From an uncultured archaeon (GTDB lineage: Archaea; Asgardarchaeota; Lokiarchaeia; Sigyniarchaeales; SOKP01): 47,526 bases of DNA. Below are positions 25,243-29,898 of this stretch, in pieces. The notes under the pieces were generated by a model that saw only the letters and a list, made by a program, of their open reading frames with translations, did no database searches and had not been told where the DNA came from. Numbering within the stretch: position 1 is the first letter of the stretch; every line of letters starts with the position of its first letter. The stretch is taken from assembly GCA_964388035.1 (NCBI GenBank), contig CAYLZE010000030.1, positions 1 through 47,526 on the forward strand, written 5' to 3'. The position numbers and the translations under genes are program-made.

Positions 25243-25893
25243 GTGGGAATCAAGAAAAAGCTTTTTCCTCGCAAAAGTGAACAGAAGGATAGTTTAGTCG
25301 CGAATGCAAAAAGCCATATTCATAAATTGGAATTAAATAGTAGAAATTATGCCAAACGAGCCGATATCAGTCGACAGAATGCTAAAATCGCCTTAACCCG
25401 GGGAGAAAAGGATAGGGCAAAGAGCTATTTAATTCAATATAAGAATTATCAAAAGAAAATCGACAGGATGAATAACATCCGAACCAAAATTGAAAATTCT
25501 CTCCATGCCATTGAAGAAGGACAAATGATCTCACAAACTGGTGACCTTTTCGGCGGCATTCGCGATACATTACAAGAACTTTCTGTAAAAGCAAATCCTG
25601 AAAAAGTTGCGGAGATTGCAGAGGATTCTGAGCAATATATTGCCGAAATAGAGGAATCTGCTGAGATTTTGGGCGGAGATCTTGAGATTGATCTAGGAAT
25701 TAGCGTTGATGATGAGTTAAATCAATTAGAAACCGAAATACTCTTAGACCAGAGTGGAGAAATGCCATCTGCACCCTCAGAAGAGTTGCAATATATACCT
25801 GAATACGGGACTGAAGAAGAAGGTGCACAAGTTGACAGCAAGGAGAAACTTCAGAGCGAGATTGATAAATTAAGAAAGGAACTCGAAGGATAG
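25243..25893 (+). CDS. ESCRT-III subunit, Snf7 family (probably Vps20/32/60 class)
   Basis: Basic helical N-half (AKIALTRGEKDRAKSYLIQYKNYQKKIDRMNNIRTKIE..L.AIE), acidic C-half (VDDELNQLE), terminal helix LQSEIDKLRKEL; GTG start. Confidence 0.85.
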   Translation: MGIKKKLFPRKSEQKDSLVANAKSHIHKLELNSRNYAKRADISRQNAKIALTRGEKDRAKSYLIQYKNYQKKIDRMNNIRTKIENSLHAIEEGQMISQTGDLFGGIRDTLQELSVKANPEKVAEIAEDSEQYIAEIEESAEILGGDLEIDLGISVDDELNQLETEILLDQSGEMPSAPSEELQYIPEYGTEEEGAQVDSKEKLQSEIDKLRKELEG

Positions 25894-25990: not shown

Positions 25991-27010
25991 TCATTCTTCT
26001 TTTAATGCTTTAACCATATTAGTTAATTTTGCTTTTACTATATCATAAGCAAATTCTTCGCTATTAAATGCCTTTTTTAGGGCCCCAAAACCACAATCTG
26101 GCTTGATTATAAGATTTTCCCTGCCATACAAGTCAAATCCTTTTTTGATGAAATCTTTCAAAAACGATATTTCTTCCACATAATCTTCGACTTTCCCATT
26201 TGGAATGGGAGAGAAACTGGTTTGAACCGTTCCCATTGCAAGATATTTTCCGTTTTTTTCAATATCATTTTTTTGAAAGACATTAAAATTTTTAGGATTC
26301 GTCCGAAATTCATGATCCATTATTTTTACATCGGTTTGGAGGAGTAATTCATATAATTTGGGGCTTATTCTTCCACATACATGTATGGACGGCAAGTCTT
26401 TGATTCCTGAAAGGGCTCTGTTTACTATTTCAATTATAAATTCTTCCGAATGAAACCATGTTTTATTCCCAACTAGAAGACTTAGAATGGGTTCATCCAT
26501 GGAAATTATATTAATTCCTAAATTATTATAAGCTTTACCAATTTCCTTCATATAATCAGCAAATTTCTCAATGATCCAATCTACCATGATAGCTCTTGGT
26601 TCTTTAAAGATCATGGGTTTTAAACCTTCCGAAAGACCACTGCTAAGAATGATCTCGCTCGTTAAAGTAAAGGGCCCTGTCAAGCAGGCTTTAGTTCCTT
26701 TTATTTTCTTTTTAAGCTCGGAATGTTCATTTAAAAAATTAATGATAAATTCTCCATATTCTAAAGCAACCAATTGTTTAGGCAATTGGAATTCACTCTT
26801 TAAGAGATAAGTCTCATTATTTTCTTCTAATTCCGGAATTAATCGAGATAAAGGAGTTAAAAATTGGGGATTCATGGGAACTAATTGAGGATAGCAAGGA
26901 TAATCAATTCCCATATTAATCTGATCTTGAAAAGCTCTATTCATGTTTTCTATAGTATTAGATAAGGGAAAGGATCCTACTACTGTAGTAAAAGGAGTCT
27001 CTTTTGCCAT
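25991..27010 (-). CDS. Core (single-barrel) methionine synthase, MetE C-terminal-domain family
   Basis: TTVVGSFP, KACLTGPFTL, ISMDEP, Zn ligands HVC / E / PDCG. Confidence 0.85.
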   Translation of the reverse strand: MAKETPFTTVVGSFPLSNTIENMNRAFQDQINMGIDYPCYPQLVPMNPQFLTPLSRLIPELEENNETYLLKSEFQLPKQLVALEYGEFIINFLNEHSELKKKIKGTKACLTGPFTLTSEIILSSGLSEGLKPMIFKEPRAIMVDWIIEKFADYMKEIGKAYNNLGINIISMDEPILSLLVGNKTWFHSEEFIIEIVNRALSGIKDLPSIHVCGRISPKLYELLLQTDVKIMDHEFRTNPKNFNVFQKNDIEKNGKYLAMGTVQTSFSPIPNGKVEDYVEEISFLKDFIKKGFDLYGRENLIIKPDCGFGALKKAFNSEEFAYDIVKAKLTNMVKALKEE

Positions 27011-27121: not shown

Positions 27122-29161
27122 TTAATAGGGATAATGGGATGAGCCATTTTGCATGTTACTTTTAAGATGTGCATACCTCACTTGTTCCATTTTATCTTCT
27201 ATTTCCAATATTTCATTCTCCAAGGCAAAGTTCTCTTCCTGTAAATTTTGATAAGTTCTAAAATAATCTAATTCCGTGAGATTTCCTTGATCGAATCTAT
27301 TGGATAATTCTCTAATTGTTTCTTCTAAAGCAAACTTTTTCTTTCTTAATTCATGAAGACGTGCTGAATTTTTCGTTGGGTTGTCATTAGTGTTCCCTTT
27401 TTTTACAAAGGAGGAATCTTTTGATGGATATTCATGGTTAAAGAATTCCGAAAGATGGTTTTTACGAAAATCTTGATACTTATTCTCATAAATGTGGCGA
27501 TGCATCTTATCTTTTTCATATTGATTAGTTTCAAAGGGGCTTTTTGGTTGATTTCCATTGAAACGAGAATTTCCTTCATTGAAAATGGAAGATTTTTTGT
27601 AAATATCCTCCTTAAAATAATTTTCTGAATCTAAAGGGGAGTATCTGGATTCTTGGGCTTGTTTAAGTTTTTTCATTAATATAGTCTTATCTTCACTATC
27701 TTGATCATGTGGATATCGATGTTTATTTTTTTCACGATTATTCATATGGGATGTAAATTCTCCAAAATTTTCTCCAAAGTCCGAATTTATGTAGTCATAA
27801 GCAGGAGTATCTTGGGTTGTAGCTCTATATTCAAAGTCGGAACGATAATCGTGCTTGTAGGGATTTCGTTCGGGATATGCTTCAAAATTTTTAGACCTAA
27901 AATCAGAGAAGCTTCGGAAATCTTGACGCTTACTCGACTGTGAAGGCCCATTTCTTTCATTAAAACGGCATTTTCTGCTAAAAAATGAATTTATAGCATT
28001 TTCTATAAAATTTGACATGTCATTTAAATTAAGATTTATCGTTTGGAGTTTCTTAGCTGATTCGTGATTTTGTAAAACGGCTTCATCAAACGTTCGCGCC
28101 AAAAGAATGTATTCTATGACTCTGGATAATGATTTAGGAGGAAGCGAAAATTCATAATTTCCATAAGCAAATTCTAAATAGAGTTTCTTGAATATTCTTC
28201 CTTTCTCTTTAATTCGGGTCAAATCATTCACAGGGGCTTTAAAGATCAAATCCCGTTTCTTTTTGATCAGTCCATATTCATGTATAAAGGACAAATCGTA
28301 ATTAGTAACGAATAAAACCCCTCGTTTTTTATTTAAAATATCTTGATTATTGCTTCCATTTAATAATTTTGCTGTTATGGCATACACGGGTTTCTCTTCT
28401 TCTGCCAAATTTAAAAATCTTTTATAAGAGAGGAAATATTTTGTAATTTTCTCAATGAATTGCATTTTTTTTTCGTGAGATTCAATGTTTTCAATGATTA
28501 TCTTCATGCTATTATCAATAAATTCCATTATCGAAAGAAAACTATGTGATTGATTATCTAAAATTCCTTCAATGATTTTAAGATTAGAATTCGGTTGAGT
28601 GTAGATATTAAAGAAAAACTCCTCGTTCACAGATAAATGATGAAAGTGGATTTTAAGCTTTTCAATGACATCATTTCTAAGTCGGAGATATGACTGAAAT
28701 AGATTGACCAGTTCCGTTTCGATATTAGGAAAATGATAGCATTTAATGGGAGGATCTCGGGCAGTTCTAACTCTTTGCCGTATCCCATTCCATTTATCCA
28801 CGAGTTCTTGAAGAGGGGAAAGAATTTCTCGGGATTTTGTGATTAATTCTAAGAATTTTTGTTCTAACGTATCTTTTTTTTCATATATATTTACGATTTT
28901 CAGGGAATGACATTTTGGACAGGATTTTTCAATACGTGTTGCTTTTAGAATGTTTTCCTTATTACAATCCTTGCAAACTCTCTTACCCTCTGCGTTTAAA
29001 ATTTCTATATTAGTGGAATTACAATCCTTGCAGGTATAGTATTCTACCTTTTCTTCATTTAGACAATCGGAGCAACTACTTGCTCCACAATCTTCACAGT
29101 AATATGTTTCCTTCACTTGTCTCCGGCAAAAACGACACGAGGAGGTCTCTCTTTCTGACAT
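27122..29161 (-). CDS. Multidomain protein: six CxxC zinc-binding N-terminus, coiled coil, PH/GRAM-like domain, low-complexity linker, C-terminal steadiness-box-like (ESCRT-I Vps23/37 core) hairpin
   Basis: CxxC at aa 9, 22, 30, 44, 63, 81; GVLFVTNYDLSF; ALEETIRELSNRFDQGNLTELDYFRTYQNLQEENFAL at aa 611-647. Confidence 0.65.
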   Translation of the reverse strand: MSERETSSCRFCRRQVKETYYCEDCGASSCSDCLNEEKVEYYTCKDCNSTNIEILNAEGKRVCKDCNKENILKATRIEKSCPKCHSLKIVNIYEKKDTLEQKFLELITKSREILSPLQELVDKWNGIRQRVRTARDPPIKCYHFPNIETELVNLFQSYLRLRNDVIEKLKIHFHHLSVNEEFFFNIYTQPNSNLKIIEGILDNQSHSFLSIMEFIDNSMKIIIENIESHEKKMQFIEKITKYFLSYKRFLNLAEEEKPVYAITAKLLNGSNNQDILNKKRGVLFVTNYDLSFIHEYGLIKKKRDLIFKAPVNDLTRIKEKGRIFKKLYLEFAYGNYEFSLPPKSLSRVIEYILLARTFDEAVLQNHESAKKLQTINLNLNDMSNFIENAINSFFSRKCRFNERNGPSQSSKRQDFRSFSDFRSKNFEAYPERNPYKHDYRSDFEYRATTQDTPAYDYINSDFGENFGEFTSHMNNREKNKHRYPHDQDSEDKTILMKKLKQAQESRYSPLDSENYFKEDIYKKSSIFNEGNSRFNGNQPKSPFETNQYEKDKMHRHIYENKYQDFRKNHLSEFFNHEYPSKDSSFVKKGNTNDNPTKNSARLHELRKKKFALEETIRELSNRFDQGNLTELDYFRTYQNLQEENFALENEILEIEDKMEQVRYAHLKSNMQNGSSHYPY

Positions 29162-29640: not shown

Positions 29641-29898
29641 TTAAAAAAGATAACTAGAACGATACTGCATGGGTGCAGCTTCAGTCACGACAACATTATC
29701 CGCCTGAAGTCCTTTTTCACCTTCAACAACATCAAATTCAACTTTGTCGTTCTCGCGCAGGGTCTTGAATTCATCATCTGAACCGTTGATAGCCGTATAA
29801 TGAACAAAAACATCAGTGCCTTCTTCAGTAGTTATAAATCCGTATCCTTTACGATTGTCGAACCATTTAACAGTTCCTTGTTGCAATTTTAAAACCAA
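29641..29898 (-). CDS. cspA: Cold-shock domain protein (CspA family)
   Basis: [26 protein letters not shown]...VEF.V.EG.KG.QA.NV. Confidence 0.95.

Follow-up and report, generated by a model that had tools for sequence, protein, structure and literature searches.

Does the long open reading frame that lies near an ESCRT-III gene in a Lokiarchaeial genome encode an ESCRT-I-like adaptor, and is its combination of domains new? In the window, meaning the whole analyzed stretch of 47,526 nucleotides from an uncultured archaeon of the Lokiarchaeia, the existence of an open frame of 679 amino acids on the reverse strand (27122-29161) was confirmed. A sequence-only reading had assigned to this protein FYVE-like zinc fingers, a coiled coil, a GRAM/GLUE-type PH-like domain and a C-terminal steadiness box (SB), and had proposed a UEV-less ESCRT-I-like subunit of novel domain architecture. 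More than 263 homologues were identified, every one of them in Asgard archaea, and 293 of 400 sampled genomes of the phylum carry one. Identity to the other Lokiarchaeial members found is about 41-65%, with a linker of variable length. It should be noted that single-sequence searches of Pfam, NCBIfam and the PDB stayed below threshold throughout and that family profiles were needed for detection.

The C-terminus (aa 595-624 and 630-671; 27149-27379, reverse strand) is predicted to form a helical hairpin with pLDDT values above 90. Within it lies the 37-residue string that the sequence-only reading had quoted as a steadiness box, exactly at aa 611-647 (nt 27331-27221). The single sequence matches the Pfam family Vps23_core (PF09454) only at a sub-threshold E of 0.12; at the family level, 36 of 39 C-termini match it, the best with E 8e-6. 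When the family profile was searched against 177,635 PDB sequences, the yeast Vps23 core took ranks 1-3 (2F66_A, 2P22_A and 2CAZ_A; E 0.005-0.011) and the SB of Vps28 ranks 7-10 (E about 0.1). Alignment to the SB of an Odinarchaeal Vps23 is gap-free at 38% identity (BLASTP 2e-7; hhalign 95.5%), and the columns T615, L619, F623 and G626 are conserved and in register with the Vps23 SB, as had been proposed. At the profile level, the resemblance to the steadiness box thus exceeds chance, and together with the alignment it identifies the hairpin as homologous to that element. The likeness to Vps23/TSG101 of ESCRT-I (2F66, 2P22, 2CAZ) lies in this in-register alignment; unlike Vps23/TSG101, however, the protein lacks both a UEV domain and a proline-rich region. 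The predicted absence of a UEV domain was borne out by a Pfam scan in which no UEV/UBC match was found at E <= 10. A further difference from Vps23 is that no continuous stalk runs into the hairpin, which is instead preceded by a disordered tether of about 190 amino acids, the long helices being located N-terminal of the PH domain.

AlphaFold2 (AF2) modeling placed three long helices, with pLDDT mostly above 90, at aa 92-135, 147-184 and 191-250 (28412-28888, reverse strand), representing the coiled-coil or helical stalk ('CC'). They are followed by a predicted PH-like domain of the GRAM/GLUE type (aa ~251-363; 28073-28411, reverse strand), consisting of seven strands and a C-terminal helix and carrying EEKPV at aa 255 and GVLFVTNYDLSF from aa 281. 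Structural alignment of this region (aa ~246-363) by VIA-align gave the GRAM-PH domain of MTMR2 at Z 14.1 (rmsd 2.6 over 107 residues), Lam6 at Z 13.4 and the GLUE domains of Vps36 and EAP45, both at Z 11.3, and the best 50 matches listed all cover the PH-like fold region (PH, PTB, GRAM, GLUE, FERM-C and related). Foldseek returned Lam6 (5e-6) and the PH domain of Vps36 (1.6e-4). The fold match to MTMR2 (1LW3), Lam6 (5YQR), Vps36 (2CAY) and EAP45 (2DX5) spans 96-109 residues at Z 11-14 and rmsd 2.6-3.5, although sequence identity to these GRAM/GLUE structures is just 12-18%. A more distant homologue matches the Pfam families bPH_3 (1e-7) and GRAM (5e-5), and four lysines of the domain, K257, K300, K308 and K325, are invariant. 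The PH-like middle region put forward by the sequence-only reading is thus recovered by AF2, Foldseek and VIA-align alike. A DH domain, as in DH-PH RhoGEF tandems spanning the helices and the PH domain, was considered and rejected, with rmsd values of 5-14 Å or more and Z scores not above those of PH-only matches. Past the PH domain, two more helices (aa 364-404; 27950-28072, reverse strand) lead into a linker predicted to be disordered from its composition and pLDDT (aa 405-594; 27380-27949, reverse strand). The linker is rich in N, S, K, E, D, F and Y, and its pLDDT values fall under 50 at aa 413-487 and 507-592, on either side of a single short helix that is modeled with confidence (aa 489-505). 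It also carries the motif N-H-L-S-x-x-F at aa 568-574, with N568, H569, L570, S571 and F574 as conserved columns.

The N-terminal module (aa 1-91; 28889-29161, reverse strand; pLDDT ~80-90) contains six CxxC pairs, at C9, C22, C30, C44, C63 and C81, and all 12 cysteines are invariant or nearly so over 40-60 homologues. Six such pairs are enough for three predicted zinc sites. Cysteine spacing of the type C-x2-C...C-x2-C-G-x3-C-x2-C and a possible cross-brace are features shared with the FYVE domains of EEA1 and Hrs/Vps27, but two additional CxxC pairs are present. The FYVE label of the sequence-only reading had to be dropped: neither the WxxD nor the R(R/K)HHCR motif was found in the zinc module of the family alignment, the acidic or aromatic ETYYCED (family consensus LAYYCEE/D) stands where FYVE domains have RRHHCR, and the RVC of this protein is not conserved, the residues before C63 varying across the family (KVC, KIC, KSC, GSC and others). 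Fold matches of the module are weak overall (Foldseek E >= 0.25; VIA-align Z <= 4.5) and comprise ZZ, RING, B-box and zinc-ribbon structures at Z 3.3-4.5, under which the FYVE chains 1X4U and 2YW8 rank 44th and 48th at Z 3.0 and 2.9. With the signature motifs missing and no specific fold match, the FYVE reading was rejected, and the module is probably of the cross-brace or zinc-ribbon type.

The genomic context links the gene to ESCRT, as the sequence-only reading had anticipated. Its convergent neighbor (25243-25893, forward strand) encodes a Snf7/Vps20-type ESCRT-III protein (Pfam Snf7, 2e-15) and is the sole genome-wide match to PF03357 at E <= 0.01. The two genes are convergent in 72 of 80 related loci, and therefore they are not co-transcribed. 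Between them lies a MetE-like gene of the cobalamin-independent methionine synthase family (25991-27010, reverse strand; Pfam Meth_synt_2, 1e-9), an arrangement seen in 45 of the 80 loci; this gene is a passenger. Downstream, the order in the window continues from the 679-residue frame through MetE-like and Snf7 (opposite strand) to DHQS II, GH57 and a CAAX protease. M20 and C69 peptidase genes are found upstream, together with a small open reading frame that would be L35Ae by synteny with Lokiarchaeum sp. GC14_75; this identification was rejected, the product being a cold-shock-domain protein. In another Asgard family, a homologue adjoins Vps4-Vps25-Vps22, so that ESCRT linkage is kept in two different arrangements across Asgard lineages. 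The Vps22-Vps25-Vps4 cluster of the present genome is located on another contig. A genome-wide search with PF09454 recovered only the putative adaptor gene (E 0.04), and the family SB profile detected no second SB-bearing frame in this genome. Likewise, a PF03997 search of the genome yielded no small canonical Vps28, the Vps28 C-terminal domain being found only inside a 789-residue frame.

The architecture itself is not new. It has been described as asCOG cog.011556, Znr_CC_PH_SB or Znr_PH_CC_SB, a family absent from eukaryotes and regarded as a likely component of ESCRT-I, with a PH domain that associates with membranes and an N-terminal module of three zinc ribbons (Makarova et al. 2024, mBio, PMC10936438). 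The same study describes an SB-like N-terminus on Asgard Vps22 and lists the GC14_75 member (As_004-p_01543) in the order ArgE, PepD, L35Ae, cog.011556, MetE, Vps20 (opposite strand), DHQS, GH57, CAAX protease (PMC10936438). Earlier, RING, CC, PH and SB domains were named in Asgard ESCRT-I-like proteins (Supplementary Fig. 8 legend, Hatano 2022, PMC9192718), and a Thorarchaeal homologue, ThorAB25_08990, was labeled 'SB'. That work also reported Asgard Vps22-like and Vps25 proteins, the former nearer to Vps22 than to Vps36. In its yeast two-hybrid assays, the SB proteins of Loki and Thor reportedly gave signals when paired with Vps28 and Vps22, the interaction with Vps28 being a possible one (Hatano 2022, PMC9192718). 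The protein analyzed here has the zinc module, helical region, PH domain and C-terminal SB of Znr_CC_PH_SB, and its PH region is 38% identical to ThorAB25_08990 (E 3e-11). Based on this alignment and on gene order, it is very probably the Lokiarchaeial orthologue of the family (27122-29161, reverse strand). Its place in the gene order is that of Lokiarch_16740 in Lokiarchaeum GC14_75. Both are Lokiarchaeial and share the domain order (679 amino acids here compared with ~650) as well as the flanking MetE, opposite-strand Vps20-type ESCRT-III, DHQS, GH57 and CAAX protease genes; the upstream cold-shock-domain gene, where GC14_75 carries L35Ae, makes no substantive difference. The novelty claimed by the sequence-only reading therefore does not hold: architecture, ESCRT-I assignment and predicted membrane role have all been published, and the locus brings no new kind of object. 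The idea of a UEV-less ESCRT-I-like subunit with recognition modules of its own largely holds, in agreement with the published reading, without its FYVE component.

Other readings of the protein can be weighed against an ESCRT-I-like one. A reading of the hairpin as a generic oligomerization element, of the coiled-coil or SHOCT-like kind, in a protein without an ESCRT role is disfavored by the evidence and appears highly improbable. Generic families do match it, including APG6_N (in 36 of 39 C-termini), prefoldin and further coiled-coil families, the PDB matches include tektin and designed coiled coils, and the single-sequence Vps23_core match is sub-threshold. The Vps23 core and the Vps28 SB nevertheless take ranks 1-3 and 7-10 among all PDB sequences searched, the Odinarchaeal SB aligns without gaps and ESCRT-gene linkage is conserved in both arrangements. 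SHOCT (PF09851), which the sequence-only reading had named as the match that would speak against it, gave no hit in the protein at E <= 10 and is outside the 25 families that the 39 C-termini match most often (E <= 1); nor is the gene one of the 7 genome-wide SHOCT matches (E <= 10). At the opposite end of the protein, the first four CxxC pairs may make up a cross-brace like that of RING, B-box or ZZ domains, binding an E2, ubiquitin or a degron, so that the protein would mainly be an E3-type or ubiquitin-receptor component attached to ESCRT. The family profile matches the RNF4 RING (E 0.02), distant homologues weakly match Pfam zf-B_box, several homologues are named 'B-box zinc finger protein' by NCBI and 'RING' appears in the above legend (Hatano 2022, PMC9192718). 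However, these RING, ZZ and B-box matches, including the VIA-align matches to ZZ, RING, U-box and B-box folds (Z 3.3-4.5), all fall short of significance, zinc ribbons reach equal scores and three zinc ribbons is the published description (Makarova 2024, PMC10936438). We consider a primarily ubiquitin-pathway protein improbable, though less so than a generic coiled coil.

A somewhat better, still minority, case can be made for a stand-in for ESCRT-II. The protein might replace a missing Vps36 and not Vps23, supplying the PH and zinc elements and docking its hairpin on Vps22, thereby bypassing the Vps23/Vps28 headpiece. In yeast, zinc fingers accompany the GLUE (PH) domain of Vps36. The PH matches include the GLUE domains of Vps36 and EAP45 (both Z 11.3; Foldseek 1.6e-4 for Vps36), and the genome has no small canonical Vps28 detectable with PF03997. 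Further consistent with such a role are the closer relationship of the Asgard Vps22-like protein to Vps22 than to Vps36 and the two-hybrid signal that the Loki SB protein gave with Vps22 (Hatano 2022, PMC9192718), as well as the SB-like N-terminus of Asgard Vps22 (Makarova 2024, PMC10936438). Yet GRAM-type PH domains score above GLUE domains (Z 13-14 compared with 11.3), the protein is without winged-helix domains, the top sequence matches of the hairpin are Vps23 and then Vps28 and a possible Vps28 interaction was reported alongside that with Vps22 (Hatano 2022, PMC9192718).

We consider it very likely that the protein is a UEV-less ESCRT-I-like adaptor, putatively acting at membranes, with partner, ligand and the role of zinc all inferred. 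In such an adaptor, the PH domain, possibly together with the zinc module, would anchor the protein to membrane, cargo or ubiquitin, and the flexible linker would allow the SB hairpin to reach and pack on other hairpin-bearing ESCRT subunits, candidates being Vps28 and, through its SB-like N-terminus, Asgard Vps22. Docking of the hairpin may then recruit ESCRT-II and Vps20-type ESCRT-III to the anchored site. Several observations count against an ESCRT-I-like model, namely the sub-threshold single-sequence match to Vps23_core (E 0.12), the generic coiled-coil matches and the disordered linker before the hairpin, and, at the level of the locus, the convergent orientation of the ESCRT-III gene, the intervening metabolic gene in 45 of 80 loci and the lack of a second SB-bearing frame in the genome.

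A more far-reaching and rather doubtful possibility is that the protein serves as a single-chain substitute for several upstream ESCRT modules. The PH domain would read an archaeal membrane lipid or ubiquitin, with the binding of ubiquitin or cargo falling to a zinc cross-brace. By docking on Vps22 at its SB-like N-terminus, the hairpin would seed the Vps20-type ESCRT-III of the neighboring gene, with N-H-L-S-x-x-F as an additional partner-binding peptide. The protein would then represent an ancestral hybrid of ESCRT-0, ESCRT-I and Vps36-like functions older than the eukaryotic division of labor. Should this be the case, novelty would be confined to details of mechanism, since the family has been published, as has a similar idea. 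The family is widespread in Asgard archaea and bears on how eukaryotic membrane trafficking arose; it combines an ESCRT-I assembly hairpin with predicted modules of the membrane-binding and cargo type.

The open reading frame of the adaptor gene (27122-29161, minus strand) is uninterrupted and encodes 679 residues, with a start codon consistent with its homologues, most of which begin with MSE. Its motifs lie where the sequence-only reading had placed them: the string compared there with the steadiness box (SB) is found at aa 611-647 (nt 27331-27221), EEKPV begins at aa 255 and GVLFVTNYDLSF at aa 281. The product also contains six CxxC pairs (C9, C22, C30, C44, C63 and C81). A word-indexed search returned upwards of 263 homologues comparable in length; all named ones come from Asgard MAGs, chiefly Lokiarchaeia/'Promethearchaeota', and are annotated as 'hypothetical', 'B-box zinc finger' or 'LIM domain'. 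Of the 400 genomes sampled from the phylum, 293 contain an adaptor match at E <= 1e-8, including 127 of the 134 genomes in the window's own family, and several other families had none (e.g. 0/31 and 0/22 genomes). The gene is single-copy in the window's genome. Across 60 aligned homologues, the 12 cysteines and many positions in the helical and beta-rich regions are conserved. The C-terminal block, where T615, L619 and F623 are invariant and G626 nearly so, is preceded by about 190 weakly conserved residues.

This C-terminal block is homologous to Vps23-type steadiness boxes, as the sequence-only reading had proposed. At the sequence level, the assignment is clearer from family-level tests than from single-sequence ones. 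Against Pfam, the protein alone gave a sub-threshold Vps23_core match (E 0.12, aa 597-646), and in a genome-wide PF09454 scan the adaptor gene was the best match at E 0.04, a level also reached in control genomes. A profile of 39 C-termini searched against 177,635 distinct PDB sequences ranked the yeast Vps23 ESCRT-I core first to third (2F66_A, 2P22_A and 2CAZ_A, E 0.005-0.011), in the same register as originally proposed, followed by the Vps28 N-terminal hairpin (E ~0.1-0.17); the full-length family profile yielded the same Vps23 matches. Vps23_core was matched by 36 of the 39 C-termini (best E 8e-6), with the caveat that APG6_N, prefoldin and other generic coiled-coil families match the hairpin too; CdvA-like matches occurred in 8 of the 39. 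Residues 604-645 and the SB of OdinLCB4_14270 give a gap-free alignment (BLASTP 38% identity, E 2e-7; 95.5% probability by hhalign of the C-terminal alignment against the SB segment). OdinLCB4_14270 is a UEV-stalk-SB Vps23 characterised biochemically by Hatano et al. (PMC9192718), whose Supplementary Data 1 supplied the sequence. SHOCT, the outcome named beforehand as speaking against an SB, did not emerge in any test: the protein had no such match at E <= 10, SHOCT did not figure among the 25 families that the 39 C-termini matched most often at E <= 1, and the 7 genome-wide SHOCT matches at E <= 10 did not include the adaptor gene.

AlphaFold2 modelling based on the 60-homologue alignment (mean pLDDT 73.8) predicts a zinc module rich in beta strands (aa 1-91) that leads into three long helices (aa 92-135, 147-184 and 191-250), then a beta-sandwich capped by a helix (aa 258-361) and two further helices up to aa 404. 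Beyond these come a region of pLDDT <50 (aa 413-592), broken by one helix, and a confidently modelled hairpin (aa 595-624 and 630-671, pLDDT >90). Foldseek against the PDB retrieved PH-like domains, including the GRAM-like PH domain of Lam6 (5e-6) and the N-terminal PH domain of Vps36 (1.6e-4, 20% identity). In an independent VIA-align search, all 50 of the best 50 matches cover the PH-like fold region, among them MTMR2 GRAM-PH (Z 14.1, rmsd 2.6 over 107), Lam6 (Z 13.4) and the GLUE domains of Vps36 and EAP45 (Z 11.3). Within the same order, a homologue belonging to a different family matches Pfam bPH_3 (1e-7, passing the cut-off) and GRAM (5e-5). On this evidence, the proposed PH/GRAM/GLUE-like character of the middle region holds at the fold level.

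The fold searches also returned many DH-PH RhoGEF tandems over aa 92-363 (28073-28888, minus strand), such as Dbs (1KZ7_A, Z 11.8, rmsd 5.4 over 170) and Trio (1NTY_A, Z 12.6, rmsd 10.9). A DH-like relationship of the helical region plus PH domain is not established, because these tandem matches do not exceed the PH-only ones.

The zinc module had been described as FYVE-like, a label that is unsupported because FYVE signature motifs were not found in it, the 'RVC' of the window protein is not kept across the family and fold matches are weak or low-ranked. Modelled alone (aa 1-100, pLDDT 81), it gave no Foldseek match below E 0.25, with RPA and Rpb2 zinc ribbons at the top. VIA-align matches reached at most Z 4.5 and comprised a mix of ZZ, RING, U-box and B-box domains plus ribosomal/TFIIE zinc ribbons, with FYVE domains at ranks 44 and 48 (Z 3.0 and 2.9). 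Judging from the model, the first four CxxC pairs could form either a cross-brace or two ribbons.

Two features stand out in the linker. The isolated helix (aa 489-505, 27647-27697, minus strand, pLDDT ~81) follows an L-M-x-x-L-x-x-x-Q consensus in the family. About 20 residues upstream of the SB hairpin, an N-H-L-S-x-x-F motif (aa 568-574, 27440-27460, minus strand) is embedded in predicted disordered, otherwise poorly conserved sequence; F574 is invariant and N568, H569, L570 and S571 are each at least 90% conserved in the 60 homologues. One possible role for this short peptide is partner binding.

The adaptor gene is convergent with a Snf7-family ESCRT-III gene (25243-25893, plus strand), the sole PF03357 match in the genome at E <= 0.01, with a MetE-like gene (25991-27010, minus strand) between them. 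In 80 related loci drawn from GTDB species genomes, the adaptor is convergent with Snf7 in 72, and genes for DHQS, GH57 and a CAAX protease come next. MetE intervenes in 45 of the 80, most others being tail-to-tail with stops tens of bases apart, and therefore looks like a passenger within a conserved adaptor/ESCRT-III pair. One contig carrying the full block of adaptor, Snf7, DHQS, GH57 and CAAX protease (DATKTW010000152.1) was deposited as 'Candidatus Nanopelagicaceae bacterium' and is probably mis-binned or mislabelled. The Vps22-Vps25-Vps4 cluster of the window's genome is located on a different contig, adjoining NIP7 and RsmB. A different Asgard family shows another arrangement: in three of its genomes (L085, 8849-14093; L086; L087), a shorter homologue of about 520-560 aa sits beside Vps4-Vps25-Vps22, leaving a gap of ~800 bp into which an ESCRT-III gene could fit. 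This layout agrees with the numbering in Hatano et al.: ThorAB25_08990 (SB), 09000 (ESCRT-III), 09010 (Vps4), 09020 (Vps25) and 09030 (Vps22). 'ThorAB25_08990|SB' is itself a homologue of the adaptor (PH segment 38% identical, E 3e-11).

The domain architecture, initially considered the likely novelty, is not new, because the family is already published as asCOG cog.011556, Znr_CC_PH_SB. Makarova et al. (PMC10936438) describe it as absent in eukaryotes, present in several Asgard lineages and likely ancestral, a likely ESCRT-I component with a PH domain expected to be membrane-associated. In their supplementary neighbourhood table, the order for Lokiarchaeum sp. GC14_75 is cog.011556, MetE, an opposite-strand Vps20 ESCRT-III, DHQS, GH57 and a CAAX protease, which the window reproduces at every gene starting with the adaptor. 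Upstream lie ArgE and PepD in GC14_75 and M20 and C69 peptidases in the window. In GC14_75, ribosomal protein L35Ae is listed where the window encodes an 85-aa cold-shock-domain protein directly upstream of the adaptor (29641-29898, minus strand; Pfam CSD E 7e-27). Lu et al. (bioRxiv 2023.07.25.550441) used cog.011556 as a 'Steadiness/Vps23 box' asCOG, and according to the legend of Supplementary Fig. 8 in Hatano et al., the domains of Asgard ESCRT-I-like proteins include RING, CC, PH and SB. In a 2018 review, the Vps23 counterpart of Lokiarchaea is Lokiarch_16740 and the Vps20/32/60-type ESCRT-III is Lokiarch_16760; from this two-gene spacing, Lokiarch_16740 would be the GC14_75 family member.

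The adaptor thus retains its proposed identity as a UEV-less, ESCRT-I-like protein with PH and SB domains, without the FYVE part. This domain set and PH-like fold come together with a disordered tether, and the linkage of the gene to ESCRT genes is conserved. A search of the window's genome with the SB profile of the family detected no second SB-bearing frame. The only PF03997 (Vps28) match there is to the C-terminal domain (model positions 87-179; contig C7, 53091-53360) within a 789-aa open frame, and the search at E <= 0.01 revealed no small Vps28 of canonical form in this 96.7% complete genome. Yeast two-hybrid signals reported by Hatano et al. suggest contact with Vps28 for the SB proteins of both Loki and Thor, and with Vps22 for the Loki one. 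Alternatively, the adaptor may replace the missing Vps36 and not Vps23. For an ESCRT-I-like adaptor, we hypothesize that the PH domain, perhaps together with the zinc module, would attach the protein to membrane or cargo, and that the tether would let the hairpin pack on other ESCRT hairpins, either Vps28 or the N-terminal SB-like part of Vps22. Recruitment of ESCRT-II and Vps20-type ESCRT-III would then follow.
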